A stretch of DNA of 64,000 bases, taken from an uncultured Dehalococcoidia bacterium. Lineage in GTDB: Bacteria; Chloroflexota; Dehalococcoidia; Lucifugimonadales; GCA-2712585. The number at the start of each line of letters is the position of its first letter. The stretch's first letter is position 1. The DNA is taken from assembly GCA_951812825.1 (NCBI GenBank), contig OX638324.1, positions 2,203,141-2,267,140 on the forward strand, written 5' to 3'. Below the pieces are notes generated by a model. That model had not been told where the DNA came from. It was given only the letters and a program-made list of their open reading frames with translations, and ran no database searches. Made by a program: the position numbers and the translations under genes. This document shows, in pieces, positions 7,200 to 56,754 of the stretch.

Positions 7200-7268
7200 G
7201 GTGGATTGAGGAGGGTTTGGCGACAAGGTATATTTGAGGAATGGGGTAGTGGGGAAGGGGCAAAGTTA

Positions 7269-7610
7269 ATGAAAGAGGTTGGGCTGTCGTTGTCGGACAA
7301 GGCGCGAAGCGACCTCGCTGAAATCGTTATGCGAATCGTAGACACGGCGGAACCGGAAAGGGTTATTCTCTTTGGTTCCACGGCCCGCGGCGAGGCGGGT
7401 CCGCACAGCGATATGGACTTTCTCATTATCAAATCGACGTCTAACGAGTGGGAGTTGGGTGCCAGCATTCGCCGTGCGCTCTATGGCGTCAAAGCCGCCG
7501 TTGATCTGGTGGTGGCGAGCCCTGAAGACATTGAGAGATACAAGGACAGCCACGCTCTGGTAATTAAACCCGCCCTTAAAGATGGAATTGTAGTGTATGA
7601 CGCTGCCTGA
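7269..7610 (+). CDS. Nucleotidyltransferase-domain protein (MNT-type antitoxin of HEPN-MNT pair)
   Basis: Polymerase-beta-like NTase motif ILFGSTARGEAGPHSDMDFLI. Its 3' end overlaps the HEPN gene by 14 nt. Confidence 0.75.
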   Translation: MKEVGLSLSDKARSDLAEIVMRIVDTAEPERVILFGSTARGEAGPHSDMDFLIIKSTSNEWELGASIRRALYGVKAAVDLVVASPEDIERYKDSHALVIKPALKDGIVVYDAA

Positions 7611-8016
7611 ACGCTTTCCGCCTGACGATCCCCGGGAGTGGATTAACCGTGCCAGAAGGGATCTGGCAATGGCGAAAAACCGCATTGCCGGGGCTTACTT
7701 GGAAGGACATTGCTTTCATGCCCAGCAAGCAGCGGAGAAGGCGGTAAATTCGGTGATGATTTTGCGCGGGATTGACTTCCCGTACATTCATGACCTGAGT
7801 CGCCTGTTGTCCATGCTTGAATCGTTCGGGGAGAAGCGGACTGAACAGGTCCGTCAGGCTGACGCATTAACTGAATATGCTGGCGTCTTTCGATATCCAG
7901 TATTTGATGAACCGGTGTCTGAGCAGGCCTACAAGGATGCTGTGGCTATTGCCGAGGCGGTGGTTGTTTGGGCGGAGGATCGAATAGGATACAGCGCAAT
8001 TGGAAGCGGGCCTTAA
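7597..8016 (+). CDS. HEPN-domain protein (toxin of HEPN-MNT pair)
   Basis: 139 aa, helical, with the pattern WINRARRDLAMA...HAQQAAEKA...H typical of the HEPN domain. It is paired with the upstream NTase. Confidence 0.7.
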   Translation: MTLPERFPPDDPREWINRARRDLAMAKNRIAGAYLEGHCFHAQQAAEKAVNSVMILRGIDFPYIHDLSRLLSMLESFGEKRTEQVRQADALTEYAGVFRYPVFDEPVSEQAYKDAVAIAEAVVVWAEDRIGYSAIGSGP

Positions 8017-8018
8017 TC

Positions 8019-8294
8019 CTACCCGCCGGCTACTGCGGGTACGATGCTAATCTCGTCGCCGGACTGGGTGGCGGTGTCCACGCCCTGGAGGAACCGGACA
8101 TCCTCGCCGTTGAGGTAGATGTTGACGAAATAGCGGAGCTGTCCGGACTCGTCCATGACCCGTTCCTTGAAGCCGGGATAGTCGCTCTCCATGCTTTCGA
8201 TGAACTCGCCGATAGTGGAAGCTTCCACCTCGACCTTGTCCTGATTATTGGTAAGCCGCCGAAGGGGTGTGGGCACCCGGACCATAACTCCCAT
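8019..8294 (-). CDS. MoaD/ThiS-family ubiquitin-like sulfur-carrier protein (C-terminal Gly-Gly)
   Basis: 91 aa ending ...GDEISIVPAVAGG*. Beta-grasp-like length and strong RBS AAGGAGG. Confidence 0.75.
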   Translation of the reverse strand: MGVMVRVPTPLRRLTNNQDKVEVEASTIGEFIESMESDYPGFKERVMDESGQLRYFVNIYLNGEDVRFLQGVDTATQSGDEISIVPAVAGG

Positions 8295-8341
8295 TAGCCG
8301 GTAACCTCCTTAGAACCGAAAGGGTTGACTATTGCGATGTG

Positions 8342-8350
8342 ATTATACCA
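8342..8350 (-). promoter_or_regulatory. Extended -10 promoter element (TGGTATAAT) upstream of the MoaD-like gene
   Basis: The minus strand reads TGGTATAAT about 48 nt upstream of the ATG. No good -35 element. Confidence 0.4.
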
Positions 8351-8432
8351 GAGCCGGAGTTGACGTGTTAGACTCCCGCCTGTGCGGTAGTGACTGGAAG
8401 GGTGCTAAGATCGGGTTGGTGGAATGGGACTT

Positions 8433-8675
8433 TCAGCCTTCTACCACGTCTCCCGCGATGGGGTCTACCCGGACGCCGAGGGAACTGACCCAAGCGACGC
8501 CGCGGTTAATCTCGTCCAGAGAACCTTCCAGCTCGAGGATGACCCAGCCCATCTCGTCGCGAACGTCGGCGCGCCGGATGTTTGTGACCACGTCGTACTT
8601 CTTGCCCAGGTTGTAGATAATGGGCTGTGTTACAAGGGCGGTGGGGAAGGTAAATTTCACGCGCTGCTTGTCCAA
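8433..8675 (-). CDS. Stand-alone NIL-domain protein (MetN C-terminal-like ferredoxin-fold ligand-binding domain)
   Basis: 80 aa: VKFTFPTALVTQPIIYNLGKKYDVVTNIRRADVRDEMGWVILELEG resembles the NIL domain. The TTG start has its RBS GGAGG overlapping the stop of the upstream ThrC-like gene. Confidence 0.6.
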   Translation of the reverse strand: MDKQRVKFTFPTALVTQPIIYNLGKKYDVVTNIRRADVRDEMGWVILELEGSLDEINRGVAWVSSLGVRVDPIAGDVVEG

Positions 8676-8680
8676 ATCGT

Positions 8681-9922
8681 TTACCTCCGCACCGGGGTTT
8701 GGCCGTTGAGGGCCGCTTCGAAGTCTTTCATGGTGGGCTTGATGGTCAGGGGTTGGGCAACGTCGCTGATAACCTCCTGGGTCTTGAGGCCGTTGCCGGT
8801 GATGAAGGCGACGGTGAGTTCGTCCTTGCCTATAAGGCCACGCTTGACCAGGTTCTTGAGAGCAGATATGACAACGCCGCCGGCGGTCTCGGTGAAGATT
8901 CCCTCGGTCTCGGCGAGGAGCTTCATGCCCTCGGCTACTTCTTCCTCCTGGACGCCGTGGGCGGCGCCGCCGGACTGCTTCATGGTCTGGATGGCGTAGA
9001 TGCCATCGGCGGGGTTGCCAATGGCGAGGGACTTGGCGATGGAGTTGGGCCGGACGGGCATGACCATCTCTTCGCCGGCATTGAAAGCGTCGACGACGGG
9101 GGAGCAGCCGACGGCCTGGGCGGCGTACATCCGGGTGGGGACGGGGCCTTCCATGAGGCCGACGTCGACCATTTCGCCGAAGCCCTTCCTGATCTTGGAG
9201 AGGAGGGCGCCGGAGGCCACGGGGACGACGCAGTGGGCGGGGAAGCGCCAGCCAAGCTGCTCGGCCACTTCCAGGCCGAGAGTCTTGCTGCCCTCGGCGT
9301 AGAAGGGGCGCATGTTGATGTTGACGAAGGCCCAGTGGTAGCTATCGGCGATTTCACTGCAGAGGCGGTTGACTTCGTCGTAGCCGCCGTCTATGGCCAT
9401 GATGGTGGGGCCGTAGATGGCGGCGCCGATGACCTTACCGGCCTCCAGGTTGGATGGGATGAAGACCACGGACTTCATCCCAGCGCGGGCGGCGTGGGCC
9501 GCGACGGAGCAGGCGAGGTTTCCGGTGGAGGCGCAACTTAGGGTGTCGAAGCCGAATTCAAGGGCTTTGGTGGCGGCAACGGAGACGACCCGGTCCTTGA
9601 ATGAGAAGGAGGGGTTGACGCTGTCGTTCTTGAGATAGAGGTTGTCCAGGCCGAGGACCTTACCCAGGTTGTTGGCCTTCATCAGGGGCGTATAACCGGC
9701 GTGGATGTCGACGGCGTTGTCGTCGTCCACGGGGAGCAGGTCCTTGTAGCGCCAGATGGTGAGGGGGCCGTCCTCGATGCGGCGACGGCTGGTGGCCCTG
9801 GCGACGGCGTGGTAGTCGTAGGCGACTTCCAAGGGGCCGAAGCAGAAGTCGCACACGTTGAGAGCCTCCACGGGGTATTCCCGGGCGCACTCACGACATC
9901 TTAGGGCGGTTACGAAAGACAT
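8681..9922 (-). CDS. Threonine-synthase-like PLP enzyme with N-terminal Zn-ribbon (second ThrC paralog; candidate MetM-type homocysteine synthase)
   Basis: 413 aa. Contains CRECAREY...CDFC (zinc ribbon) and the PLP lysine motif SFSFKDR. It is distinct from the canonical thrC at 50341-51402. Confidence 0.8.
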   Translation of the reverse strand: MSFVTALRCRECAREYPVEALNVCDFCFGPLEVAYDYHAVARATSRRRIEDGPLTIWRYKDLLPVDDDNAVDIHAGYTPLMKANNLGKVLGLDNLYLKNDSVNPSFSFKDRVVSVAATKALEFGFDTLSCASTGNLACSVAAHAARAGMKSVVFIPSNLEAGKVIGAAIYGPTIMAIDGGYDEVNRLCSEIADSYHWAFVNINMRPFYAEGSKTLGLEVAEQLGWRFPAHCVVPVASGALLSKIRKGFGEMVDVGLMEGPVPTRMYAAQAVGCSPVVDAFNAGEEMVMPVRPNSIAKSLAIGNPADGIYAIQTMKQSGGAAHGVQEEEVAEGMKLLAETEGIFTETAGGVVISALKNLVKRGLIGKDELTVAFITGNGLKTQEVISDVAQPLTIKPTMKDFEAALNGQTPVRR

Positions 9923-9978
9923 TTGCAGCTTATTCGCAGGGTGGGCTGTGCCATTTGGGTGGTAGTTAACGGTTGGGG

Positions 9979-10007
9979 ATAGTAGCAGGCGAGTCGCTTT
10001 CTGTCAA
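9979..10007 (-). promoter_or_regulatory. Sigma-70-type promoter for the ThrC-like/NIL operon
   Basis: The minus strand reads TTGACA-N17-TACTAT about 57 nt upstream of the ATG at 9922. Confidence 0.45.
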
Positions 10008-10095
10008 TTGCAAGGGGTTGGAGTTGACGCATTTCGACGCGGCGGAAGATGGATTCCCGCCTTCGACGGAAATGGCGGCTTGGCGGAATCGGGAT

Positions 10096-10136
10096 GAAAC
10101 GAAAACAGGGGAGGGATTCGTCGAATCCCTCCCCTG
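10096..10136 (-). terminator. Rho-independent terminator of hsp20
   Basis: Perfect 14-bp stem CAGGGGAGGGATTC / GAATCCCTCCCCTG with a 3-nt loop, followed on the minus strand by UUUUCGUUUC. Confidence 0.7.
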
Positions 10137-10179
10137 TCGTAGCGCCGGCGGGGGCGGTTCCCGCCGCGTTAAAGCCGCC

Positions 10180-10608
10180 TCAGGACTTGATGTCGATCTT
10201 GTGGACCTGGGCCTTGGTCTCCTCGCTCTTGGGAATGGTGATGGTGAGGATGCCGTCCTCGAAGGACGCCTCCGCCATTTCGGGCTGTAGGCCCCGAGGC
10301 AGCCGCATGGTGCGTTGGAAGGCGTTGAAGCCGTGCTCCTTCATGACGTACTGCTTCTCCTCGGACTCCTTGCGACCCTTCATTACGAGCCAATTGCCGC
10401 TGATGCTGAGGTCCACGTCGTCGGCCTTGAAACCGGGAGCGGCGGCCCGCAGAACCAGGGACTCGTCGGTGTAGAAGGCATCCATGGGAAGGGCGTTCTC
10501 GGGAGTGCCGTGCCGGGGCATAAGGCCGTAGTTGTGGGGGAACATCCTGAACACGTCGCGCTCCATTCTGCGAAGGTTATGGAAGGGGTTCCAGCGCTGG
10601 ATAGCCAT
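10180..10608 (-). CDS. Hsp20/alpha-crystallin small heat-shock protein
   Basis: Alpha-crystallin domain (VLRAAAPGFKADDVDLSISGNWLVMKG...RTMRLPRGL...ASFEDGILTITIPK). The start at ATG 10608 follows GGAGGAAAC. The longer ORF to 10668 is rejected. Confidence 0.9.
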   Translation of the reverse strand: MAIQRWNPFHNLRRMERDVFRMFPHNYGLMPRHGTPENALPMDAFYTDESLVLRAAAPGFKADDVDLSISGNWLVMKGRKESEEKQYVMKEHGFNAFQRTMRLPRGLQPEMAEASFEDGILTITIPKSEETKAQVHKIDIKS

Positions 10609-10673
10609 TAAGTTTCCTCCTGAGTTTTTTTGTCTTGGAAGACCCATTTGGGCTTCCGTAACTGACAATAGTG

Positions 10674-10702
10674 ATTATACATAGTTGATAAGTTACTGTC
10701 AA
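10674..10702 (-). promoter_or_regulatory. Consensus sigma-70 promoter of hsp20
   Basis: The minus strand reads TTGACA-N17-TATAAT, perfect consensus in both hexamers and spacing. Confidence 0.6.
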
Positions 10703-10754
10703 GTATACTTATTAGAATATTGCTAACTTACATAATTATATGCACGCAATTTAG

Positions 10755-10783
10755 TTGACTAAGCTCTATATTATCACTACAAT
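10755..10783 (+). promoter_or_regulatory. Near-consensus sigma-70 promoter of the dnaJ-like/hspR/clpB operon
   Basis: TTGACT-N17-TACAAT, 59 nt upstream of ATG 10842. Confidence 0.55.
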
Positions 10784-10841
10784 ATCAGTAAGGGTATGAG
10801 ATTGAAAACTGGCACAAGCCTGTGGTCCTGAGAGGGTCGAA

Positions 10842-11714
10842 ATGGCCAGCTACTACGACATACTAGGCGTTCCAAAGACAGCAACGGATGCAGACATCCG
10901 CAAGGCGTACCGTCGGCTGGCGCGCCAGCACCACCCGGACGTGAACCCCAACAATGCGGAGGCGGAGGCGAAGTTCAAGGAGGTTAACGAGGCGTACCAG
11001 GTACTTTCCGACGGGGAGAGCCGCAAGAAGTACGACGTGTACGGAGAACGGTGGAAGTACGCGGATCACTTCCAGCAGGCCGGGGACCCTGCCGGGCCTT
11101 TCGTGTGGCGTTCCACGTGGACGGGGGGCAGCAGCGTCTTCGACGGGATGGGACCCGACCTGTTCGACGGGCTTTTTGGTGGGAGGAACCGCGGCTTTGC
11201 CTCCGTAAAGGTGGAGCACCCCGTGTCTGTCACCCTTGAGGAGGCCTACGCAGGAACGACGAGGCTGCTGGGTGTGCCGTCTGCATCGGGGGTCACGCAG
11301 AAGCTGGAGGTGAAGATACCGCCGGGGGTGGACAACGGCTCGCGGGTCAACGTTGCCTACGACAATGGCGGGAGCGGAGGCATCAGGTTAAAGGTGACGG
11401 CGCTTCCGCACTCGCGGTTCAGGCGAGAGGGGGCAAACCTTTGGGGGGAGGTGGATGTGCCGATGCTGGACGCAGTGCTGGGAGGCAGCGTTTCCGTGGG
11501 CACGCTGAGGGGACGGGTGGAGCTGACGATTCCACCGGAGACGCAGAACGGGCAGACCTTCCGGCTCGGGGGGCGAGGGATGCCCCACTTGAACGATCCG
11601 ACGAGGTTTGGCGACCTTTTCGTGAAGGCCCGTGTGATTGTGCCCAAGGGATTGAGTGAAGAAGAACGGGGTCTGTTCCAGCAGCTTCGTGACCTGAGAT
11701 CTGCAAGGAGATAG
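10842..11714 (+). CDS. J-domain co-chaperone, CbpA-type DnaJ (no Zn-finger domain)
   Basis: J domain [32 protein letters not shown]. The C-terminal DnaJ_C repeats are present and the CxxCxGxG repeats are absent. Confidence 0.85.
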
Positions 11715-11718
11715 GAAT

Positions 11719-12074
11719 ATGGCTTTTGAGCGAGACCACAGCGCGGAACCGTGCTATGTCATCAGTATTGCAGCCAGAATGGTAGGATTGCACGCCCAGA
11801 CTCTGAGATACTATGAACGGGCGGGGCTGCTTTCCCCCTCGCGCTCTCTTGGCCGGCAGCGTCTGTATTCGCCGCTGGACGTGCAGAGGATTCTTCGCAT
11901 CAAGGCTTTGACGGAGGAGATGGGGGTGAATCTGGCAGGGGCGGAGGTGGCATTGCGGCTGATGGCGCAGATCAGGGAGCTGCAGGCGGAGAATGAGGGG
12001 TTGAAGCAAGAGATTAGACGGTTGAAGTCCAGGGCCGAATCCGGCAGACGGACGGCCCGGAGGAGGATATCCTG

Positions 12075-12075
<1 letters not shown>
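11719..12075 (+). CDS. hspR: MerR-family heat-shock regulator HspR
   Basis: MerR HTH (YVISIAARMVGLHAQTLRYYERAGLL) plus a coiled-coil tail. It sits between dnaJ-like and clpB, the classical HspR context. Confidence 0.75.
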
Positions 12076-14543
<2,468 letters not shown>

Positions 14544-19962: not shown

Positions 19963-20841
19963 TTAGTGGTTGCGGCGGACGATAACGGTGTCGGTGGGGG
20001 CAAGGGACAGCATTGATGCGGCGTTTCCGTTTTTCAGGGCAATCTCCAGGGTGTCGAAGCTGCCGATGATGGCCAGCAGACCGTCTGCTTCGGCGTAACT
20101 GTCGCTCAGGCCATGGATAACCGTGTCGCCTGCTTCTATCTGGACGTTAAGGAGAGAGGGGCGCCCACAAGGGGCGCCCCTCTGAGGATCGAGGGGAGTG
20201 GTTTCGGGTTTCAGGAGTGACGAGGGGATATCCGTGACGAGGTTGCCGAACCTGTCCACGTGTACGACCCTTCCGCGTAGTAAGTCGCCCCGCCAGTGGG
20301 GCGTTGACATGGGCAGGCAACGGAGGCTATCTACTTCGTCGCCCAACTCCGAGGAGGCCGCGCCCGCGGAGAGGTGGGCTGCAACAGGGGCAAAAATATC
20401 CCGGCCGTGGAAGGTGTGGCTGAGAGGCTGAAGCCAGTAGTTTGCGTTGGTCAGGTGGTAGGCCCTCCAGCCGGCTGGCAGTTCAACGGAGCCGCCCTCT
20501 GTCGAGGGCAGGTCCAGTCCGTGAATAAGGACGTGGGTGAGGAGGCCGTTGTCGGGGGCGAGGAAGCGTCCCACAGGCGTTTCCAGCAGGATGGCGCGTC
20601 TATTTGTGCCGACGCCGGGGTCCACGACTGCCACGTGGATGGCGTTCCTGGGAAAGTAGCGGTGGCTGTGGTGGAGGAGGAAAGAGCCTTGCAGGACGTT
20701 TTGGGGCGTCACGCCGTGGGTGACGTCAACTATCTCGGCGCTGGGGTTGATGCGTAGGATGACGCCCTTCATCAAGCCGACGTAGGGGTCCTGAAGACCG
20801 AAGTCCGTCGTCAGGGTGATGACGGGACTGGGAGAGGGCAA
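19963..20841 (-). CDS. SAM hydrolase / SAM-dependent halogenase family protein (DUF62, SAM hydroxide adenosyltransferase)
   Basis: ITLTTDFGLQDPYVGLMKGVI...HVAVVDPGVGT...FLAPDNGLLT...FHGRDIFAP are DUF62 hallmarks. Confidence 0.8.
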   Translation of the reverse strand: MPSPSPVITLTTDFGLQDPYVGLMKGVILRINPSAEIVDVTHGVTPQNVLQGSFLLHHSHRYFPRNAIHVAVVDPGVGTNRRAILLETPVGRFLAPDNGLLTHVLIHGLDLPSTEGGSVELPAGWRAYHLTNANYWLQPLSHTFHGRDIFAPVAAHLSAGAASSELGDEVDSLRCLPMSTPHWRGDLLRGRVVHVDRFGNLVTDIPSSLLKPETTPLDPQRGAPCGRPSLLNVQIEAGDTVIHGLSDSYAEADGLLAIIGSFDTLEIALKNGNAASMLSLAPTDTVIVRRNH

Positions 20842-23417: not shown

Positions 23418-24515
23418 TTGGTACAATTGAATAAATCGTCAGGGAGGACCGCACTAAACTTGGATCCATCCGTCACGAAAACAGCCAAAGCAACCGCTAT
23501 CAGCAACTCTCCGTCGGACATGGACATCCTCGACCGGAAGCTGCTGAACATCATCCAGTCGGGGTTTCCGTTGGTGGACGAGCCTTACGTACAGATAGGC
23601 GAGGAGCTGGGCATCGACGAAGCTGCCGTCCTGGAGCGCATTGCCCGTCTGCGGAAGATCAACGTGGTGCGGCAGATAAGCGCCATCTTCGACACCAGAC
23701 GCCTGGGATACAAGACAACGTTGGTGGCTATGGCGTTTCCGCGTGAAGCACTGCACAACGCTGCACTCGTCATAAACGAGCACCCCGGCGTGAGCCACAA
23801 CTACGCCCGGGAGGGTTCCTATTACAACCTGTGGTTCACTCTGGCAGTAGCGCCCAACGAGGACTTGGAGGAGACGGTGAACGGGATGGCAGCACGTACG
23901 GCGGCACTCCAACACCGCCTGATGCCGACTATCCGGTTCTTCAAGATTGGTGTCAATTTCGACATGGTGAACCGAAAGAGCGCGGCCTTCAACTACAGTC
24001 CCGATGGGTACGACAAGGGTGTGTCTAAGGACTGGAACAAGGCGGTGGCCCTCTCGGAGTTCGACATTCGCGTCATCCGGGAGCTTCAGGAAGACCTGCC
24101 CATGATCTCTCGTCCCTTCGACGCCATGGCAGAACGCTTGGGGCTTTCCAATGACGAGATGTACCGGACAGCCGCCGACTTTCAGAAACGGGGATTCATG
24201 CGCCGATACAGCGCCGTGCTGCATCACCGCAGGGCGGGCTTTCGGGCCAACGCCATGGCCGTCTGGAAGGTCGACGAGGAGCGGGCCGAGGAGGTGGGTC
24301 AGATAATGGCGTCCCATCCCACCGTCACTCATTGCTACCAGCGTCCGACGTTTCCAGACTGGCCCTATACCCACTTCACTATGATCCACGCCACCACTCC
24401 GGAGGGCTGCGAGGAGTCGGTGACGGAGATTGCCGAGGCTACGGGGTTGGACGAGTATCTGCTTCTCTACAGCACCCGGGAGTACAAGAAGACTCGCGTT
24501 CGGTACTTTGTCTGA
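23418..24515 (+). CDS. Fused double AsnC/Lrp-like protein, siroheme decarboxylase type (AhbA-AhbB / NirD-NirL like)
   Basis: Two tandem HTH plus AsnC-type ligand-domain repeats (LDRKLLNIIQSGFPLVDEPY... and FDIRVIRELQEDLPMISRPF...). Adjacent to sirC/hemC/cobA-hemD/hemB. The real start may be ATG 23520. Confidence 0.65.
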   Translation: MVQLNKSSGRTALNLDPSVTKTAKATAISNSPSDMDILDRKLLNIIQSGFPLVDEPYVQIGEELGIDEAAVLERIARLRKINVVRQISAIFDTRRLGYKTTLVAMAFPREALHNAALVINEHPGVSHNYAREGSYYNLWFTLAVAPNEDLEETVNGMAARTAALQHRLMPTIRFFKIGVNFDMVNRKSAAFNYSPDGYDKGVSKDWNKAVALSEFDIRVIRELQEDLPMISRPFDAMAERLGLSNDEMYRTAADFQKRGFMRRYSAVLHHRRAGFRANAMAVWKVDEERAEEVGQIMASHPTVTHCYQRPTFPDWPYTHFTMIHATTPEGCEESVTEIAEATGLDEYLLLYSTREYKKTRVRYFV

Positions 24516-25158
24516 GTCTTCTTTCCCCACCTATTATCCCGTTTTCCTCAGTCTGAAGGGGAGGCGGTGTGTTGTGGTGGGGGGCGGGCCAATTGCCGAG
24601 GGCAAGGTTCGAAATCTGATGAAGCATCCCTGTGAGGTCGTGCTCATCAGCCCCGATGCTACGGATGCGCTGACAGAGTGGGCTGTGGATGGGCGTTTCG
24701 AGTGGAAGCGGCGGGAATATCGTGAAGGTGACCTGAAAGGCGCGTTTCTGGCCATCGGAGCTACGGGAGTCCTGGAGGTGGACAGGCTCATGGCGGAGGA
24801 AGCGGAACGAGAACGGGTGCTGCTTAACGTGGTGGACTACGTGCCCTTATGCATGTTTATCGCGCCGTCTATCGTCGAACGGGGGCCTGTGACGTTTGCC
24901 ATTTCCACGTCGGGGGCGAGCCCCGCCCTGGCCCGCAAGCTGCGGGAGTCCATGCAGGAGAACGAACTGCTTGACTACGCCGAGATTGCCGGGCTGCTGT
25001 CGAAGGCGCGCATGGAGGTGAAGCGGCGCGGATGGAAGATCCCGCCCGACCGGTGGCAGGAGGTCATCGACAGAAAGTTGGTCGAAGCGGTGCGTGAGGG
25101 TCGGGAAGCGGAAGCGTTGAAGGATATCCTGCGAAAGCTGTCCGGCGAGGAATCGTAG
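24508..25158 (+). CDS. sirC: Precorrin-2 dehydrogenase / sirohydrochlorin ferrochelatase (SirC/Met8-like)
   Basis: YPVFLSLKGRRCVVVGGGPIAEGKV Rossmann N-terminus. A TTG start at 24508 is proposed. The ORF-track start at 24430 lies inside the preceding gene. Confidence 0.75.
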   Translation: MSESSFPTYYPVFLSLKGRRCVVVGGGPIAEGKVRNLMKHPCEVVLISPDATDALTEWAVDGRFEWKRREYREGDLKGAFLAIGATGVLEVDRLMAEEAERERVLLNVVDYVPLCMFIAPSIVERGPVTFAISTSGASPALARKLRESMQENELLDYAEIAGLLSKARMEVKRRGWKIPPDRWQEVIDRKLVEAVREGREAEALKDILRKLSGEES

Positions 25159-26075
25159 TGAAAAGGGTGGTGATCGGGACTCGGGGGACGCCGCTGGCGC
25201 TGCTTCAGACGCAAGAAGTTGTGGACAAGCTGCGTGAGAAGCGCCCGGAGGTGGAGTTCGAGGTGAAGGTGCTGCGGACGGCGGGAGACCGGGCTGCGGA
25301 AGCCCCCCTCCGCAGCCTGGGGGTGGGCATATTCGTCAAGGAGATTGAGGAGGCGCTGCTGCGGGGGGAAATCGCCATGGCCGTTCACAGCCACAAGGAC
25401 CTGCCGCCCAAGCTGGCTCCGGGGTTGACCATCGGCGCTGTTACGGAGCGTCTGGACCCACGGGACGCGCTGGTGAATCGTTGGAACGCAAACCTGGAAG
25501 ACCTGCCCAACGGGGCGAGAATCGGCACCAGCAGCCCCAGACGGGCAGCCCAACTCAAGAGATGGGCGCCGCAGGTGGAGGTTCTGCCCGTGCGGGGCAG
25601 CGTGGGCACCCGCATTGAGAAGGCCACGGGGGATGACTACGACGGGGTGGTGCTGGCGGCAGCGGGGATGATCCGGCTGGGCGTTGAGGATGGCGTGTCC
25701 CAGTATTTACCTGCTGATAAGTTCGTGCCCGCGCCGGGCCAGGGCGCGCTGGCGGTAGAGGTACGAACGGATGACGACGCAACTTCCTGGTTGTTGCGGG
25801 GCATCGTCCACGCACCGACGCGCCGGGCAGTGATGGCGGAGATGGCCTTCCTGGAGCGGTTGGGCAGCGGATGCCAGGAGCCATCGGCGGCCTACGCGCG
25901 AGTTGCGGGAGAAACTATGGTGATGCAGGCGTTTCTGGCTTCCACGGATGGTAAGCAGTCCTACTATACGAAGGCGCGGGGTCTGGCCTCGAATCCCCAC
26001 GAACTGGCGATGGAGGCTGTGCAGCAGCTCATCGAAAGAGGCGCCGGCGACCTGGTGCCGGGAAGCGGCCGGTGA
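25158..26075 (+). CDS. hemC: Hydroxymethylbilane synthase (porphobilinogen deaminase)
   Basis: IGTRGTPLALLQT..., HSHKDLP, and a cofactor-Cys region (LGSGCQEP). Confidence 0.9.
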   Translation: MKRVVIGTRGTPLALLQTQEVVDKLREKRPEVEFEVKVLRTAGDRAAEAPLRSLGVGIFVKEIEEALLRGEIAMAVHSHKDLPPKLAPGLTIGAVTERLDPRDALVNRWNANLEDLPNGARIGTSSPRRAAQLKRWAPQVEVLPVRGSVGTRIEKATGDDYDGVVLAAAGMIRLGVEDGVSQYLPADKFVPAPGQGALAVEVRTDDDATSWLLRGIVHAPTRRAVMAEMAFLERLGSGCQEPSAAYARVAGETMVMQAFLASTDGKQSYYTKARGLASNPHELAMEAVQQLIERGAGDLVPGSGR

Positions 26076-26130
26076 ACTCTTTTTCGTTTCACACCCCCTC
26101 TTCGCGTATAACGACTATCGACCCTCCACG

Positions 26131-27678: not shown

Positions 27679-27685
27679 GCCGATA

Positions 27686-33889: not shown

Positions 33890-36800
33890 GTGAATTCCAC
33901 CGAGCAGAGGGAACGTCTCGCAGACTTGCTTGAGCGGCGGATCCTGGTGGCGGGCGACGCCAATGGGACCCGCATTCAGGCGTTGGACCTCGCCGCCGAG
34001 GACTTTGGCGGGCCGGAGTACGAAGGCTGCAACGAGTACCTGAACCTGCTCCGCCCCGACCTGGTCCAGGACATCCACCGCTCCTACATGGAGGCGGGGG
34101 CAGACATAGTCATAACCAATTCCTTCGGCAGCACCCCGCTGGTTCTGGACGAGTATGGCCTGGGCCGCCAGGCGCGGGAGATAAGCGAGGCGGCGGCGCG
34201 AAACGCCCGGCTTGTAGTGGACGAGTTTTCGACGCCGGAGCGGCCTCGCCTGGTGGCAGGGTCCATGGGGCCAACGACTCGTTCCATATCGGTAACGGGC
34301 GGCGTCACTTGGGACGAGCTGCGGGAGCACTACTTCGTGCAGGCTTTGGGTCTGTGGGAAGGGGGGTCGCACCTGCTGCTGGTGGAAACTTCCCAGGACA
34401 CGCTTAACGTGAAGGCCGCCCTGGCCGCCATCGACGACCTGTCCGACAAGCTGGGGGTGGATATCCCAGTCGCGGTGCAGTGCACCATCGAGACCATGGG
34501 AACTACCCTTGGTGGACAGGATGTGGAGGCCTTCTATGCCTCCGTGAGCCACCGGAACCTGCTGTGGGTGGGGATGAACTGCTCGACAGGGCCGGAATTT
34601 ATGAGGGACCACCTTAGGACGCTGGCGTCCATCTCCCGCTTTCCCGTGTCGGTGATCCCCAACGCAGGGCTGCCCGACGAGGACGGAAACTACAACGAGA
34701 CGCCGCAACACTTCTCTCAGACCCTTCTTTCATTTGTGCGGGAGGGTTGGGTAAACGTCCTTGGCGGTTGTTGCGGCACAACGCCGGAGCACCTGAAGCC
34801 GCTCTTGAAAGGGGTAGCGGATGCCGCGCCCAGAAGGGTCTCTGAACGGCGAGCCGTTGTCTTCTCAGGGTTGGACACACTGACTGTTGATGATGACATC
34901 CGACCGGTGCTGGTGGGCGAACGCACCAACGTGTTGGGCAGCCGCCGGTTCAAGCGACTCATCCGTGAGGGGAAGTTCGACGAGGCGTCGGAGATTGGAC
35001 GCCGGCAGGTCCGCCGGGGCGCTCACGTAGTGGACGTCTGCTTGCAGGACCCGGACCGCGACGAGATGGCGGACGTTGTGACGTTCCTGAAGGGGCTGGT
35101 GGGGAAGGTCAAGGCGCCGATTATGCTTGACTCCACGGACACCGCCGTTCTTGCGGAGGCGCTTAAGCACACCCCCGGCAAGAGCATCATCAACTCCATT
35201 AACCTGGAGGACGGGGAGGAGCGTTTCGCGTCGGTGGTGCCGGTGGCGCGGAGTTTTGGCGCAGGGCTGGTGGTGGGGTGCATAGACGACGACAAGGAGC
35301 AGGCCCAGGCAATAACCCGGGAGCGGAAGCTGGAAATTGCCCAGCGCTCCTATGATCTGCTGACGGGGAAGTACGGGGTGAAGCCCGAAGACATCATCTT
35401 CGACCCGTTGGTCTTTCCCATCGGCACCGGCGACAAGAACTACGAGGGCGCCGGGGTGGAGACCGTGGAGGGGGTTCGTCTAATCAAGGAGAATCTGCCC
35501 CGGACTCGAACGGTGCTGGGCATCTCCAACGTGTCTTTCGGCCTGCCCCCCGCGGGCCGGGAGGTTCTGAACTCGGTGATGCTCTACCACTGCGTTCAGG
35601 CCGGTCTGGACATGGCCATCGTCAACACCGAGGGACTGGTGCGGTACGCGTCGATTCCCGAGGATGAGCGACGGCTGGCGGAGGACCTCATTTGGTGGCG
35701 CGGCGAAGACCCCATCGCTGCGTTCGCCGAGCGGTTCCGGGAACGACGGGTGCAGCGGCCTGAGTCTGAGCGGAAGAAAATGCCCCTGGACCAGCGGTTG
35801 TCTTCGGCCATCGTGGAGGGGATAAGAGAGGGGTTGGAGGAGGACTTGAAGGAGGCGCTGAAGGGACGTTCGCCGCTGGAGATAATCAACGGGCCGCTGA
35901 TGGACGGCATGAACGAAGTGGGGCGGCTGTTCGGCCTGAACCAGCTCATTGTCGCCGAAGTCTTAAGCTCGGCGGAGGTGATGAAGGCGGCGGTCTCCTA
36001 TCTTGAGCCGCTGATGGAGAGCGGGGAAGCCGCAACCCGCGGTAGCATCGTCCTCGCCACGGTGAAGGGGGACGTTCACGACATCGGCAAGAACTTAGTT
36101 GACATAATACTCTCCAACAACGGCTATCGGGTCATCAACCTGGGCATCAAGGTCCCGCCCCAGGACCTGATTCAGGCGTACCGTGAACACCGGCCGGACA
36201 TGATTGGGCTGTCGGGGCTTCTTGTCAAGTCGGCGCAGATGATGGTAGAGACAGTGCGGGATCTGACCGAAGCAGGCGTTGACTGCCCCGTCCTCGTCGG
36301 CGGTGCCGCCTTGACGAACCGGTTTACCCGGTTGCGGATAGCGCCGGGCCACAGGGGGGTGGTGGGATACGCCCGGGATGCCATGTCGGGCCTTGACTTG
36401 GCCCATCGCCTAGCGGACGCCGACGAACGGCAGCGGCTGGCGTCGGAACTCGTTAGAGAGACTCAGGTGATGGAGAAGGAGGAGGCGTCGCGGAGTACCA
36501 GACCCCGGACGACGCGGCCCCGTTCTTCAGGCTCGACGATTGCGCCGGTAGTGGAAGCGCCAACCCCGCCGGACCTGCGGCGACACCTGCTGGAGGACTT
36601 CGACCTCGCCGAGATCTTCAGGTACGTGAATCCGGTGATGCTTTACGTCAGACACCTTGGCTTTCGCGGTCGGTTCATGGATGCGTTGGAGGCAGGGGAA
36701 GAAAAGGCGGTGGAGCTTCGTGAACGGGTCAGGCGGGTCGAGGACGTGATGATTGAACGGAAAGACATTGCCGCCAACGCCGTTTACCAGTTCTTTCGCG

Positions 36801-37390
36801 CCGCCTCGGAGAAGGACGACCTCCTGATTCTCTCCAGCGACGGCGAAAGGGTGCTGGAGCGGTTCCACTTTGGGCGTCAATCGGGCGGCGACGGCTTGTG
36901 CCTTTCCGATTACGTGCTGTCCAGAGACGCCGGCACTCTCGACTACGTGAGCACCTTCGTCACCACCGTTGGGCCGGGGGTCCGGGACTTGGCCGCAGAA
37001 TGGCAGAAGAAGGGGGACTACCTGGCGTCCCACATACTGCAGGTGCTGGCGTTGGAGGGTGCGGAGGCTTTTGCGGAGCTTCTGCACAAACGGCTGCGGA
37101 CGGCCTGGAGCTTCCCGGACCCTGAGGGGTTGGCCAACCTTGACCTGTTCAAGGCCAACTACAGGGGCCGCCGATTCTCCTTTGGCTATCCGGCCTGCCC
37201 CAGGCTTGAGGACCAGGAGCAGCTATGGAGGCTGCTGGAGCCCGAGAAGACCATCGGGGTCTCGCTGACGGAGGGGTTCATGATGGAGCCGGAGGGTTCC
37301 GTGAGCGCCCTTGTGATGCACCATCCCCAGGCCAGATACTTCAACCTCAGTCCGGAAGACGTGGAGCTGCTGGAGTCCAAGTTCCGGTAG
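33890..37390 (+). CDS. metH: Cobalamin-dependent methionine synthase
   Basis: 1166 aa. Hcy-binding, pterin-binding and B12-binding (GDVHDIGKNLV) modules plus the AdoMet activation domain. Confidence 0.95.
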   Translation: MNSTEQRERLADLLERRILVAGDANGTRIQALDLAAEDFGGPEYEGCNEYLNLLRPDLVQDIHRSYMEAGADIVITNSFGSTPLVLDEYGLGRQAREISEAAARNARLVVDEFSTPERPRLVAGSMGPTTRSISVTGGVTWDELREHYFVQALGLWEGGSHLLLVETSQDTLNVKAALAAIDDLSDKLGVDIPVAVQCTIETMGTTLGGQDVEAFYASVSHRNLLWVGMNCSTGPEFMRDHLRTLASISRFPVSVIPNAGLPDEDGNYNETPQHFSQTLLSFVREGWVNVLGGCCGTTPEHLKPLLKGVADAAPRRVSERRAVVFSGLDTLTVDDDIRPVLVGERTNVLGSRRFKRLIREGKFDEASEIGRRQVRRGAHVVDVCLQDPDRDEMADVVTFLKGLVGKVKAPIMLDSTDTAVLAEALKHTPGKSIINSINLEDGEERFASVVPVARSFGAGLVVGCIDDDKEQAQAITRERKLEIAQRSYDLLTGKYGVKPEDIIFDPLVFPIGTGDKNYEGAGVETVEGVRLIKENLPRTRTVLGISNVSFGLPPAGREVLNSVMLYHCVQAGLDMAIVNTEGLVRYASIPEDERRLAEDLIWWRGEDPIAAFAERFRERRVQRPESERKKMPLDQRLSSAIVEGIREGLEEDLKEALKGRSPLEIINGPLMDGMNEVGRLFGLNQLIVAEVLSSAEVMKAAVSYLEPLMESGEAATRGSIVLATVKGDVHDIGKNLVDIILSNNGYRVINLGIKVPPQDLIQAYREHRPDMIGLSGLLVKSAQMMVETVRDLTEAGVDCPVLVGGAALTNRFTRLRIAPGHRGVVGYARDAMSGLDLAHRLADADERQRLASELVRETQVMEKEEASRSTRPRTTRPRSSGSTIAPVVEAPTPPDLRRHLLEDFDLAEIFRYVNPVMLYVRHLGFRGRFMDALEAGEEKAVELRERVRRVEDVMIERKDIAANAVYQFFRAASEKDDLLILSSDGERVLERFHFGRQSGGDGLCLSDYVLSRDAGTLDYVSTFVTTVGPGVRDLAAEWQKKGDYLASHILQVLALEGAEAFAELLHKRLRTAWSFPDPEGLANLDLFKANYRGRRFSFGYPACPRLEDQEQLWRLLEPEKTIGVSLTEGFMMEPEGSVSALVMHHPQARYFNLSPEDVELLESKFR

Positions 37391-46550: not shown

Positions 46551-46575
46551 CACCGCCGACTTCTAGGAGGGTGCA

Positions 46576-46956: not shown

Positions 46957-46989
46957 TTTTGGGGAGTTAGAGAGGAGGAGCAGGAGAGC

Positions 46990-47825: not shown

Positions 47826-49031
47826 ATGGCATCACCACAGCGGCGCGGCAGACGAGGCGGCCCCTCGGAGGCCGACGACAGACGGATTAGGCGCGTCCGG
47901 CAGCAGAGCACACTTTCGAAGAATCGACTTGCCCTCGCCTTCCTGAGCATCGGCCTTCTGGTCATCGCCGGCGTGGCGGTCGCCTACTGGTACACCCAGC
48001 TCTACAGACCCCCGCGAGTGGAAGCAGCCGTGGTGAACGACGTTCAGTTCAACCAGGGCGATCTCGTGAAGCGGGTGCGAATGATACAGGCCAGCCAGGG
48101 TTACACCGGCGCCTTCGTGGACCTCACCTCCATCCTCCGTGTGCTCTACAACCCGGACATCGAGATTACCTCCGGGCCCTTTGGCCTCGGCTGGGTGCAA
48201 ATGGAGCTCCTGAAGCAGAGCGCTCCCGAGTTCGGCGTGTCGTTCACGGAGAATGACATTGATGAAACCATTCGCGCCATCTTCACTCCCGATCCAACCC
48301 CGGGCGAGATTGTCACCGAGGACCAGCAGGAGCGGGAGTACAAGGAGCGGTACGCTTCCTACCTCAACTTCAATCGAATCTCCGACGCCGACTTCCGACG
48401 GCTGATTGAAGAGCGGCTCTACTTCTACGAAATGCGCGAAGCCATCGGAGCCGGTGTGCCTACGGAAGCGGAGCACCTGGAGGTCTACTGGCTCCGTACG
48501 CCCGTACGGCCTGACCCGGCGATGGGCGACCCGGCAAAGTATCAGGACCTTCAACTCATTGCCGAACGCCTCGAAGAGGAGGAATTCGAGGCCGTGGCCT
48601 ACGAGTACAGCATGGTCTTCGACCAGAGATACACGGAACCTAATGGCTACGTGGGCTGGATTCCCAGAGGGACCTACCCCAACCTGGAACCCCGCCTATA
48701 CGGGGGCGAAGTGGGGAATCGACAAATTGAACCCCTTGAAATCGGCGAAATCAGCGATCCCTGGGAGAGCAGCGGCTTCATGTACTTCATGAAGGTTGTC
48801 GACGGGCCGGATGTGCGCCAGGTGGAAGCCAAGTGGACCGAGAGGCTGAAGGACATTGCCCTCCAGACTTGGTTGGAGGATAAGTTCGAAGAGGGCACTA
48901 GCGAAGAGTGGGTGAGGGTAAAGTACGACAGCCGCATCTATGCCTGGGCGGCGGAACAACTGCGTCAGACGGCCGAGCAGAAGAGGGGACAGACCCCGGC
49001 GCCCCAACAACCAAATAGCATTGGACCCTAA
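47826..49031 (+). CDS. Membrane-anchored SurA/PpiC-like peptidyl-prolyl isomerase family protein (divergent)
   Basis: N-terminal basic region plus one TM helix, then a SurA_N-like helical region. The C-terminal parvulin-like segment is GYVGWIPRG...EIGEISDPWESSGFMYFMKV. Confidence 0.5.
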   Translation: MASPQRRGRRGGPSEADDRRIRRVRQQSTLSKNRLALAFLSIGLLVIAGVAVAYWYTQLYRPPRVEAAVVNDVQFNQGDLVKRVRMIQASQGYTGAFVDLTSILRVLYNPDIEITSGPFGLGWVQMELLKQSAPEFGVSFTENDIDETIRAIFTPDPTPGEIVTEDQQEREYKERYASYLNFNRISDADFRRLIEERLYFYEMREAIGAGVPTEAEHLEVYWLRTPVRPDPAMGDPAKYQDLQLIAERLEEEEFEAVAYEYSMVFDQRYTEPNGYVGWIPRGTYPNLEPRLYGGEVGNRQIEPLEIGEISDPWESSGFMYFMKVVDGPDVRQVEAKWTERLKDIALQTWLEDKFEEGTSEEWVRVKYDSRIYAWAAEQLRQTAEQKRGQTPAPQQPNSIGP

Positions 49032-50328
49032 CCGGCCCATTGGCGTTGGCCTTCTGGGGCTGGGAGTCGTCGGCAGCGGTGTAGCCCTTGCCCTTCAGCA
49101 ACGGCGGAACGCCCTGTCCAAGGCCGTCGGCGCGCCTGTTCAGCTGGTCAGGGCGCTTGTCAGAGACCCGCATAAGCCGCGACGCCCCAACCTGTCCCAC
49201 AGCGTGCTGACCACGGACCCGACCCAGGTTTTGGAAGTCCCCGGCATAGATATCGTCGTGGAGCTTATTGGCGGCGAACAGCCGGCGGGCGAGTACGTCC
49301 GAAGGGCGCTGGTCCAGGGCAAGCACGTCGTCACGGCCAACAAAGACCTCATTTCGCAGCAGGGCTCGGAGCTGCTGGACCTGGCGGATGAGAAGCGGCT
49401 TGGTCTCCGGTTCGAAGGGGCCGTCGGTGGCGGAATCCCCATTATCGGCTCGCTGACGGAAGACCTGCTGGGCAACGACATCAGCTCCATCCACGCCATC
49501 ATCAACGGCACCACCAACTTCATTCTGTCGAGCATGGCCGACGAGGGGATGGATGCGAAGGAAGCCCTCAGTCGCGCCCAGCAGCTTGGCTACGCCGAGG
49601 CTGACCCTGCGAAGGACGTTTCCGGCCTGGACGCCGCCTACAAGCTCTCCATCCTCGCCTCTCTGGCCTTTCACACGAAGGTGGACCCCGGGCAGGTCTT
49701 CAGGCAGGGCATCGACGGTCTCTCCGCCAGGGACTTCCGATACGCCCGGGAGCTGGGCTATGCCATCAAGCTCCTGGCCATCGCCAAGGCCCAACGGAAC
49801 GGGGTGGAAGTTCGGGTGCATCCGGCGCTGATACCGGAGGGCCATATATTGGCCAAGGTTGGGGGCGTGTTCAACGCTGTCGAGGTGGCGGGCGAGCCGG
49901 TGGGCCGGGCCTTTTTCCACGGGCTTGGCGCCGGGGCCGACCCCACCACCAGCGCCGTTCTGGGCGACCTGGTCCACGTGGGCCGGATGCTCGCCACGGG
50001 CGGCCGTCCCCTGAGGAGAGTCCCCGATGACGCTGACTTCTACGTGAAGGCAATGTCGGACGTGGAGACTCGCTACTATTTTCGGTTGAACGTTCCCGAC
50101 CGGGCCGGGGTGCTGAGCCAGATTACGAGGGTTCTAGGCGACCTGGACATCAGCATTGCGTCCATCATCCAGAAGGACGCAGACGCGGCGGCGGGCACGG
50201 CGGAAATCGTAATAACCACTCATCCGGCCCGGGAAGCGGCGGTGCAGCGTTCTCTGGCTTTGCTTGACGGGCTGGATGTGGTAAAAGTGGTAAACAACAT
50301 GATCCGTTTGGAGGAGCTTCCGGTCTGA
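49021..50328 (+). CDS. hom: Homoserine dehydrogenase (with C-terminal ACT domain)
   Basis: IGVGLLGLGVVGSGV Rossmann start, a catalytic region (GIINGTTNFILS-like IINGTTNFILSSM) and ACT-like RYYFRLNVPDRAGVL. The TTG 49021 start is inferred. Confidence 0.9.
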   Translation: MDPNRPIGVGLLGLGVVGSGVALALQQRRNALSKAVGAPVQLVRALVRDPHKPRRPNLSHSVLTTDPTQVLEVPGIDIVVELIGGEQPAGEYVRRALVQGKHVVTANKDLISQQGSELLDLADEKRLGLRFEGAVGGGIPIIGSLTEDLLGNDISSIHAIINGTTNFILSSMADEGMDAKEALSRAQQLGYAEADPAKDVSGLDAAYKLSILASLAFHTKVDPGQVFRQGIDGLSARDFRYARELGYAIKLLAIAKAQRNGVEVRVHPALIPEGHILAKVGGVFNAVEVAGEPVGRAFFHGLGAGADPTTSAVLGDLVHVGRMLATGGRPLRRVPDDADFYVKAMSDVETRYYFRLNVPDRAGVLSQITRVLGDLDISIASIIQKDADAAAGTAEIVITTHPAREAAVQRSLALLDGLDVVKVVNNMIRLEELPV

Positions 50329-50340: not shown

Positions 50341-51402
50341 ATGGCTTGGGGAGTTCTGGAGAGTTACAGGGAGTTTCTGCCCGTGGGCGAAGATACGCCC
50401 ATGATTACCCTGGGGGAAGGGAACACGCCCCTGGTGCGCTCCTACCGGCTGGCTGAGGAGATCGGTTGCCCGGAACTCTACTTCAAACTGGAAGGATGCA
50501 ACCCCACCGGATCATTCAAGGACCGTGGCATGGTGCTGGCCGTGGCCAAGGCCATGGAGGCAGGCAGCCGGGGAATCATCTGCGCCTCCACGGGAAACAC
50601 CAGCGCCTCTGCCGCTGCGTACGGCGCACGCGTGGGACTGCCCGCCACCGTGCTGGTGCCCCAGGGCGACATCGCCTTCGGCAAGCTGGCCCAGACCCAG
50701 GCCCACGGAGCCCGAATTCTGGCCATCGACGGCAATTTCGACAAGGCCCTATCCCTCGTCAGGACCATCACCGAACGCCAGCCCCTCACCCTCGTCAACT
50801 CCGTCAACCGCGTGCGTCTCGAGGGGCAGAAGACTGCCGCCTTCGAAATTGTCGACCGGCTGCAAGACGCCCCGGACCTCCTCTGCATCCCCGTCGGCAA
50901 CGCGGGAAACATCACCTCCTACTGGAAAGGCTTTAACGAATACAAGGCAGCTGGCAAGTCGCAATCCCTGCCTCGCATGATGGGCTTCCAGGCCCAGGGC
51001 GCGGCGCCGTTGGTGGAAGGCCGCCCCGTGGCCAGCCCCGAAACCGTTGCTTCCGCCATCCGCATCGGCAGCCCCGCCTCCTGGCAGGGCGCCATCAACG
51101 CCCGGGACGAATCCGGCGGCGCCATCGACTCGGTAACGGACGAGGAAATCATGGACGCCTACCGCCTCCTCTCCACCGGCGAGGGCATCTTCTGCGAACC
51201 GGCGTCGGCGGCCAGCGTGGCCGGAATCATCAAGCTGCACCAGCAGGGCATGGACCTGCGAAACCGGCGCGTTGTCTGCGTAATCACCGGCTCCGGCCTC
51301 AAGGACCCTGAGCTCGCCGTTAGCGTCATCAGCACCGGCGTCAAGGAAGTCTCCTCCGACCTGGAGGAGGTGGAGGCCGCCCTGCTGGAGTTCGCCGCCT
51401 AG
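50341..51402 (+). CDS. thrC: Threonine synthase (canonical short form)
   Basis: LGEGNTPLV, NPTGSFKDRGM (PLP lysine), directly after hom. Confidence 0.9.
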   Translation: MAWGVLESYREFLPVGEDTPMITLGEGNTPLVRSYRLAEEIGCPELYFKLEGCNPTGSFKDRGMVLAVAKAMEAGSRGIICASTGNTSASAAAYGARVGLPATVLVPQGDIAFGKLAQTQAHGARILAIDGNFDKALSLVRTITERQPLTLVNSVNRVRLEGQKTAAFEIVDRLQDAPDLLCIPVGNAGNITSYWKGFNEYKAAGKSQSLPRMMGFQAQGAAPLVEGRPVASPETVASAIRIGSPASWQGAINARDESGGAIDSVTDEEIMDAYRLLSTGEGIFCEPASAASVAGIIKLHQQGMDLRNRRVVCVITGSGLKDPELAVSVISTGVKEVSSDLEEVEAALLEFAA

Positions 51403-56750: not shown

Positions 56751-56754
56751 CCCC

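Follow-up and report, generated by a model that had tools for sequence, protein, structure and literature searches.

A three-gene unit in a 64,000-nt stretch of DNA from an uncultured Dehalococcoidia bacterium (contig OX638324.1, positions 2,203,141 to 2,267,140; the whole stretch is referred to below as the window) encodes a 413-aa pyridoxal phosphate (PLP) enzyme of the threonine synthase (ThrC) family, a stand-alone NIL-domain protein of 80 aa and a 91-aa sulfur-carrier-like protein ending in Gly-Gly. From sequence comparisons, we propose with moderate confidence that this trio is a MetM/MetO-type homocysteine synthase with a dedicated accessory protein, NIL, which would most likely be a ligand-sensing subunit. 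The MetM/MetO core adds a member to a system first described in 2024, in Streptomyces albulus by Hasebe et al. (Appl Environ Microbiol 90:e01247-24; as summarised in 10.1101/2024.10.14.618325 and PMC12172450), and the embedded NIL gene is an undescribed variant. An earlier note on this DNA had proposed a sulfur-insertion system for the methionine branch; comparative genomics backs this MetM/MetO-type reading through the clade to which the enzyme belongs, the adjacency of the carrier and the riboswitches of related operons. The three open reading frames (ORFs), the Cys4 ribbon, the SFSFKDR motif, the VAGG end and the coupling of ribosome-binding site and stop codon all lie where that note had put them, as do the canonical thrC after hom and metH (Table 1).

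Profile searches place the 413-aa protein in the PALP family (8e-66). It matches the ThrC model TIGR00260 with 267.6 bits (cut-off 167.1), and its top NCBIfam match, PRK08197, spans residues 1–391 at a score under that model's cut-off; the CysK/M model TIGR01136 gives 33.9 bits against a cut-off of 344. Identity to the window's own ThrC is only 33%. The counterpart in the nearest species-level genome, a Dehalococcoidia metagenome-assembled genome (L010), is 97% identical, and a Microcystis homologue (L088) is 56% identical. A tblastn search of a plasmid collection found a Nonomuraea gerenzanensis gene with 52% identity over the full length, including the zinc ribbon. In the Nonomuraea locus, an S-adenosylmethionine (SAM)-I riboswitch (68.7 bits) lies directly upstream of the metM-like gene, and 25 nt downstream is a gene for a 91-aa protein that ends in AVAGG and is 49% identical to the window carrier.

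In a neighbour-joining tree, the 413-aa protein falls inside a Chloroflexota group, with cyanobacterial, Nitrospirota-type and actinomycete riboswitch groups adjoining and canonical ThrC as a distant outgroup. Membership of a clade with SAM-riboswitch actinomycete genes and cyanobacterial homologues sets this second ThrC paralog apart from true threonine synthases, as the earlier note had suggested. The clade is characterised by the motifs STGNL, RPYYAEGSKT, PxASGxL and TETAGG, where ThrC has STGNT, NxxRxEGQKT, PVGNAGN and EPASA. Every clade motif is present in the 413-aa protein (PxASGxL as PVASGAL), and the ThrC hallmarks STGNT, PVGNAGN and EPASA are missing, as is the hom-linked position, which the copy at 50341–51402 occupies. 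An alignment of relatives shows S107, K109, D110 and R111 to be invariant, and C9, C12, C24 and C27 to be invariant or nearly so.

The zinc ribbon was rejected as a marker of MetM: distant ThrC-like proteins also match from residue 1 and keep the CxxC pairs, and haloarchaeal 'thrC' genes of 36–38% identity match the 413-aa query from residue 1. The MetM-like protein of Microcystis novacekii (L088, 4366–5595) has lost three of the four ribbon cysteines kept in other cyanobacteria, a loss that could be relevant to the unusual activity reported for the Microcystis enzyme (see below). Among P0213, P0253, P0256, P0205, P0219, P0229 and P0237 are distant ThrC-like proteins that likewise match from the N-terminus and are fused to a LeuA-type allosteric domain (LeuA_dimer) or a PadR DNA-binding domain; one distant representative joins ThiF to a ThrC-like domain, and is either a true E1–enzyme fusion or a gene-call artefact.

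The 91-aa protein matches ThiS (3.2e-16), SAMP1 (64.9 bits; cut-off 60) and moaD_arch (57 bits; cut-off 49.5). To survey related loci, we used an alignment of MetM-like proteins to scan a single genome of each species; the 80 loci found come from Chloroflexota, Cyanobacteria, Nitrospirota, Actinomycetota, Desulfobacterota, Planctomycetota, Omnitrophota and Aquificaceae. A MetO-like gene lies directly downstream of the enzyme gene in 74 of the 80, and most of the carriers end in AGG. This adjacency ties the Gly-Gly protein to the enzyme, as had been supposed, and not to molybdopterin genes. The MetM/NIL/MetO trio was found again beside different flanking genes in other Chloroflexota contigs, so it is not a chance grouping. 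We conclude that the 413-aa and 91-aa proteins are, by homology and gene context, very probably MetM and MetO.

The enzyme gene of seven loci (L009, L023, L027, L028, L033, L036 and L039) is preceded by a SAM riboswitch, which places the operon in the methionine/SAM regulon, Chloroflexota included. Three of these (L023, L028 and L033) are Chloroflexota operons with both NIL and the riboswitch. The tally is 3 of 25 NIL-containing units (24 related loci and the window), 4 of 11 NIL-less non-cyanobacterial units and none of the four cyanobacterial ones. No Rfam family was detected in the window at gathering thresholds, and a permissive scan (E ≤ 5) of positions 7900–10900 gave no credible match. 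The SAM riboswitch that PMC12172450 places upstream of S. albulus metM is missing upstream of the window metM; this feature is regulatory and does not define the enzyme. The promoter-like site at 10007–9979 lies downstream of the hsp20 terminator and leaves a metM 5′ leader of only ~50 nt, into which a riboswitch would not fit.

The 80-aa protein consists of a NIL domain only (PF09383, 9.3e-14, 51.5 bits; gathering cut-off 24). Its AlphaFold2 model (predicted local distance difference test score, pLDDT, 87) has a ferredoxin-like beta-alpha-beta-beta-alpha-beta order, and the best PDB matches (3tuz_H, 3tui and 3dhw; TMq 0.82–0.84, root-mean-square deviation (rmsd) 1.0–1.5 Å) are all the C2 domain of MetN. 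The best superposition is with MetN C2 in the selenomethionine-soaked MetNI structure 3TUZ (TMq 0.83, rmsd 1.0 Å), and the next structural matches are ACT domains. In a HMMER alignment to the E. coli C2 domain, in which the MetN numbering was verified by A299 and M301 (PMC6233128), position N295 of MetN is matched by N32, within the TNIRRADV motif. This Asn is unchanged throughout 32 Chloroflexota NIL homologues; the N295A substitution in MetN abolishes L-Met binding and transinhibition (PMC6233128).

The NIL homologues listed are all 77–96 aa long, and this uniformly short length indicates that the 80-aa ORF is not a fragment of MetN. Three other identities were rejected: a MetN ATPase (the NIL domain is alone, with no fused ATP-binding cassette (ABC) ATPase), a sulfur carrier (no Cys and no conserved C-terminal Gly-Gly) and the NIL-ferredoxin of L-aspartate semialdehyde sulfurtransferase (L-ASST; no Cys for a 4Fe-4S cluster, and no DUF39/COG1900 protein among the annotated window genes). 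We saw no Rosetta-stone fusions of NIL to MetM or MetO; the long ThrC-like representatives carry LeuA_dimer, PadR or ThiF. Publicly, Cys-free NIL proteins of 79–83 aa (P0001–P0120 and P0287–P0406) are named 'FeS-binding protein', 'ferredoxin', 'L-aspartate semialdehyde sulfurtransferase ferredoxin' or 'ABC-type methionine transport system ATPase subunit'. These names are domain-transfer misannotations: because NIL is Cys-free and DUF39 is missing from the annotated window genes, 'FeS-binding protein' and 'L-ASST ferredoxin' are misnomers.

Of the 80 loci, 27 include an adjacent NIL gene, and two gene orders occur. The order MetM-NIL-MetO is found in 20 loci, from Chloroflexota, and MetM-MetO-NIL in seven, from Nitrospirota, Desulfobacterota (Syntrophaceae), Planctomycetota and Omnitrophota. 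The operons of Nitrospirota also encode a ThiF-type E1 and Prok-JAB; in Nitrospira, the eight genes are ThiS, a 309-aa PALP protein, ThiF, MetM, MetO, NIL, ThiF and Prok-JAB, with NIL 2 nt past MetO. In the index of the assembly collection, the Nitrospira NIL sequence occurs in 393 blocks, and a NIL protein identical in sequence to that of the window is encoded on metagenome contigs with the window's gene order. All three gene contexts sampled starting from NIL proteins were MetM/MetO operons. NIL is about as conserved as MetM and MetO, and in one locus (L025) MetM-NIL stands without an adjoining MetO. In the searchable full-text literature, none of the six papers that speak of a 'NIL domain' links it to MetM/MetO. 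The earlier note's description of NIL as an uncharacterised third component is borne out by its recurrence as a neighbour in five phyla and two orders, together with this silence of the literature.

Within the survey, no cyanobacterial locus and neither of the two actinomycete loci has NIL, and several Chloroflexota loci are without it. Some of the NIL-less Chloroflexota are nested among NIL-bearing relatives in the neighbour-joining tree, which suggests secondary loss. Since cyanobacteria, actinomycetes and some Chloroflexota do without it, NIL would be accessory and not part of the core chemistry. The S. albulus pathway, as given in the GapMind preprint (10.1101/2024.10.14.618325), comprises only MetO, Mec, MoeZ and MetM; on that account NIL would be dispensable for the chemistry, as a regulator would be. 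We conclude that there is a strong likelihood, from gene context and conservation, that NIL belongs to the MetM/MetO system.

Two observations concern the surveyed loci themselves. The Nitrospira operon (L046 and L090–L092; about 3360–8680 in L090) carries two carrier modules in tandem. The first (ThiS, 309-aa PALP, ThiF) is probably for cysteine, and the tandem arrangement implies that both sulfur amino acids may be made via protein thiocarboxylates in Nitrospira. In L032 (7116–7542), a T-box leader (104 bits) directly follows metO, ahead of a binding-protein gene of SBP_bac_5 type; L005, L013 and L052 have comparable genes close to the operon.

By homology, the C-terminal Gly-Gly of the MetO-like carrier would be adenylated and thiocarboxylated by an E1 of ThiF/MoeZ type, whose gene would lie elsewhere in the genome. 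The MetM-like enzyme would eliminate phosphate from O-phosphohomoserine and add the thiocarboxylate sulfur at the gamma carbon, yielding homocysteine, which MetH would convert to methionine. O-phosphohomoserine would be a branch point shared with canonical ThrC, as in plants. NIL may bind methionine or a relative (homocysteine or SAM) and hold back MetM activity or MetO loading; such control would be important, since both MetM and ThrC would draw on O-phosphohomoserine. The NIL domain of the homocysteine-forming archaeal L-ASST is treated as a methionine-binding regulatory module (PMC12068725). The structural model, the conserved Asn and the L-ASST parallel make a ligand-sensing regulator a proposal that may well be right, although we put it forward tentatively. 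It is possible, and we say so with somewhat more reserve, that stand-alone NIL proteins are widespread unrecognised ligand-gated subunits controlling or joining protein-thiocarboxylate-dependent homocysteine synthesis in Chloroflexota, Nitrospira and other phyla.

Several observations weigh against the reading of the trio as MetM, NIL and MetO in methionine synthesis. The 413-aa protein exceeds the equivalog cut-off of TIGR00260, which accounts for the usual 'threonine synthase' label of such proteins; MetM is often misannotated in this way (GapMind preprint, 10.1101/2024.10.14.618325). Its putative orthology to S. albulus MetM runs through a chain of 50–56% identities and gene context. The chief experimental result that speaks against all members of the clade being MetM concerns a Microcystis homologue, which is 51.6% identical to S. 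albulus MetM and has a MetO-like neighbour: given Na2S in vitro, it showed threonine synthase and deaminase activity but no clear MetM activity (PMC12172450). Within the 64-kb window, tblastn found no ThiF/MoeZ, JAMM or second ThiS, and neither thrB nor HomK is among the ORFs. Dehalococcoides is without thrB and uses HomK to make O-phosphohomoserine (10.1101/2024.10.14.618325), and this route makes a supply of the substrate plausible. For NIL, three of the four Nitrospirota proteins examined have Asp or Ser where the Met-binding Asn would stand, so methionine is not necessarily the ligand everywhere. The RRAD segment beside the Asn is subfamily-specific and missing from MetN, which leaves room for another partner or for another ligand, such as homocysteine or O-phosphohomoserine. 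Finally, the sharper prediction that NIL substitutes for the SAM riboswitch failed; we rejected the two as mutual substitutes, since they occur together in L023, L028 and L033.

NIL might instead be a working adaptor in the sulfur relay, one that recognises the homocysteine-like end of a MetO-homocysteine adduct and passes it to the JAB peptidase or docks thiocarboxylated MetO on MetM or the E1. Its position next to MetO in both gene orders, its place between MetO and ThiF/JAB with 2-nt spacing in Nitrospira, and a degree of conservation about equal to that of MetM and MetO would all suit such a role, as would the binding of a methionine-shaped ligand by the NIL domain of MetN (PMC6233128). 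However, NIL is missing in cyanobacteria, actinomycetes and several Chloroflexota nested among NIL-bearing relatives, and the pathway as set out for S. albulus (10.1101/2024.10.14.618325) does without it. Having no Cys and no conserved C-terminal Gly-Gly, NIL cannot itself carry sulfur. We consider an adaptor unlikely, and prefer the ligand-sensing regulator.

If NIL were a passenger, it would regulate another methionine-related target, such as an importer or other enzyme, and would share only the operon and its methionine-responsive expression. The MetN importer is the best-known setting of the domain, two thirds of MetM loci are without NIL, and L025 has MetM-NIL but no adjoining MetO. Such a role is nevertheless improbable, given that NIL lies beside MetM or MetO in five phyla and two orders, is coupled to MetM in the window and separated from MetO by 2 nt in Nitrospira, and that the contexts sampled from the NIL side, three in all, are MetM/MetO operons.

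The 413-aa protein could also be a second threonine synthase or a threonine deaminase, with the carrier serving another pathway. Its TIGR00260 score, its top PDB matches, which are all threonine synthases, and the in-vitro data on the Microcystis homologue (PMC12172450) speak for this possibility. Against it, a canonical ThrC already stands beside hom; orthologues are under SAM control through riboswitches, not threonine control; 74 of 80 loci have a Gly-Gly carrier gene next to the enzyme gene, and Nitrospirota operons include E1 and JAB genes as well; and the active-site motifs differ systematically from those of ThrC. Moreover, the Microcystis assay supplied sulfide and not the thiocarboxylated carrier (PMC12172450). 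We regard a second threonine synthase or deaminase as very improbable. The most remote alternative is that the trio makes another sulfur compound by the same chemistry, either cysteine, for which carrier-dependent PLP enzymes exist (CysM/CysO) and for which a second ThiS-PALP-ThiF module lies alongside in Nitrospira operons, or a thio-amino acid for a cofactor or natural product; but the enzyme is of ThrC type and not CysK/M type by its TIGR01136 score, SAM riboswitch control points to the methionine branch, the 309-aa PALP module of Nitrospira is a better cysteine candidate, and no biosynthetic cluster genes flank the trio.

In the window, NIL starts 5 nt past the metM stop, and NIL and MetM appear from these coordinates to be made from one translationally coupled unit. 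The hsp20 terminator is the 5′ boundary of the metM unit. The NIL-metO spacer is 138 nt, and shorter in relatives. Between tgt and the 3′ end of metO, positions 7206–8016 (+) encode an MNT-type nucleotidyltransferase and a HEPN protein, a toxin-antitoxin-like pair. This insert is strain-variable: in one near-identical contig its place is taken by a 620-aa AAA_15/AAA_21 ATPase, and in more distant relatives the site is empty. On the other side is a heat-shock cluster (10104–14543), in which hsp20 has a perfect TTGACA-17-TATAAT promoter and a strong terminator, and an operon of dnaJ, a MerR-type (HspR-like) regulator and clpB is divergent from hsp20.

Table 1 Features of the metM-NIL-metO unit and of the methionine and threonine branches in the window
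Feature	Coordinates	Strand	Basis
MetM-like PLP enzyme, 413 aa, ThrC-family paralog	8681..9922	(-)	ORF, profile matches and identity comparisons
N-terminal Cys4 zinc ribbon of the 413-aa protein (C9, C12, C24, C27)	9842..9898	(-)	sequence; alignment of relatives
PLP-lysine motif SFSFKDR of the 413-aa protein (K109)	9590..9610	(-)	sequence; alignment
Stand-alone NIL-domain protein, 80 aa, TTG start at 8675, Cys-free	8433..8675	(-)	ORF and profile
MetO-like sulfur carrier, 91 aa, ThiS/MoaD beta-grasp, C-terminal end PAVAGG	8019..8294	(-)	ORF and profile
Ribosome-binding site of NIL, GGAGG, abutting the metM stop TAA (8681-8683)	8684..8688	(-)	sequence
Ribosome-binding site of metO, AGGAGG	8305..8310	(-)	sequence
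Promoter-like site of metM-NIL, TTGACA-17-TACTAT with extended TG	9979..10007	(-)	pattern
Second promoter-like site, CTAACA-18-TATAAT, in the NIL-metO spacer	8342..8371	(-)	pattern match only
Intrinsic terminator of upstream hsp20, 16-bp stem then T run	10104..10138	(-)	sequence
MetH, cobalamin-dependent methionine synthase, all five MetH domains; homocysteine consumer	33890..37390	(+)	profile
hom, homoserine dehydrogenase with ACT domain; homoserine supply	48940..50328	(+)	annotation
Canonical thrC, TIGR00260 308 bits, directly after hom; putative competitor for O-phosphohomoserine	50341..51402	(+)	profile

Neither metX nor metY is among the ORFs of the 64-kb window. Neither Pfam nor NCBIfam has a match for long ORFs of 401, 178, 157 and 321 aa at 46531–49031 and 55848–56813; the one of 401 aa, which lies shortly before hom, is neither a HomK nor a ThrB homoserine kinase. 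A SAM hydroxide adenosyltransferase of the DUF62 family, which cleaves SAM, is encoded at 19963–20841 (-), in the same window as metH and glyA. A tetrapyrrole cluster at 23418–28666 (+) comprises an NirDL/AhbAB-like siroheme decarboxylase, precorrin-2 dehydrogenase, HemC, a CobA-HemD fusion and HemB, and suggests an alternative siroheme-dependent haem route. The GC skew is positive over the first ~57 kb and negative from ~58 kb; the change at about 57000–59000 could be a replication terminus-like switch or an effect of gene orientation.

MetM/MetO in Dehalococcoidia, Nitrospira and their relatives would fill gaps in the methionine pathways of environmentally important, mostly uncultured lineages. 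The genes are still routinely named 'threonine synthase', and recognising the system also mends the misnaming of NIL. As a small, soluble, Cys-free protein, NIL is tractable for the study of NIL-domain function outside MetN, including in the archaeal L-ASST NIL-ferredoxin. If the proposed sensing role is true, NIL would be the common methionine-status sensor of three unrelated systems: MetN import, archaeal L-ASST and MetM/MetO. In plants, activation of threonine synthase by SAM sets how O-phosphohomoserine is split. NIL, if the proposal holds, would do that job by setting the split between threonine and methionine, and may show how bacteria that use O-phosphohomoserine for both amino acids balance the two branches.

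The closest known system is the S. albulus MetM/MetO pair. It shares with the window a ThrC-homologous PLP enzyme followed by a ThiS/MoaD Gly-Gly carrier of ~90 aa; the clade of the window enzyme includes a Nonomuraea pair with the layout reported for S. albulus, and SAM riboswitch control occurs among related Chloroflexota operons. The window differs in its Dehalococcoidia-type Chloroflexota host, in the 80-aa NIL gene between the two others and in having no SAM riboswitch, and E1 (MoeZ) and Mec were not found in the 64 kb.

In the CysM/CysO/Mec/MoeZ system of Mycobacterium tuberculosis, the CysK/M-type enzyme CysM makes cysteine from O-phosphoserine and a protein thiocarboxylate, with no known NIL protein. 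The window system would resemble it in its protein-thiocarboxylate sulfur donor, in a PLP enzyme acting on an O-phospho amino acid and in a carrier of MoaD-archaeal/SAMP1 type, whereas its enzyme is of ThrC type, its substrate is presumably O-phosphohomoserine and NIL is present. The HcyS/MetY/HcyF/HcyD system of Wolinella succinogenes also makes homocysteine in a carrier-dependent manner, but its enzyme is an O-acetylhomoserine sulfhydrylase of MetY type (fold-type I) and not of ThrC type, and it has no known NIL protein. For a small co-transcribed subunit, a parallel is IlvH/IlvN, the separate ACT-fold subunit through which acetolactate synthase receives end-product feedback; the likeness of two small ferredoxin-fold subunits is an analogy only; one family is NIL and the other ACT.

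For the domain itself, the C2/NIL domain at the C-terminus of the MetN importer ATPase is a methionine-responsive switch (PDB 3DHW, 3TUI, 3TUZ and 3DHX; PMC6233128). The window NIL belongs to the same Pfam family, has the same fold (TMq 0.83) and keeps the Asn equivalent to N295; unlike MetN C2, it is free-standing at 80 aa, has the TNIRRADV motif and would have a biosynthetic enzyme or carrier as its partner. L-ASST consists of a DUF39/COG1900 protein and a NIL-ferredoxin (MA1821/MA1822, DvMF_1464/0262) and acts on aspartate semialdehyde (PMC5764234, PMC12068725), and its NIL domain has been proposed to mediate methionine feedback (PMC12068725). There, as probably in the window, a NIL domain is attached to a homocysteine-forming system; the window NIL, however, is Cys-free and not fused to a 4Fe-4S ferredoxin, and its partner would be a PLP enzyme acting after homoserine.

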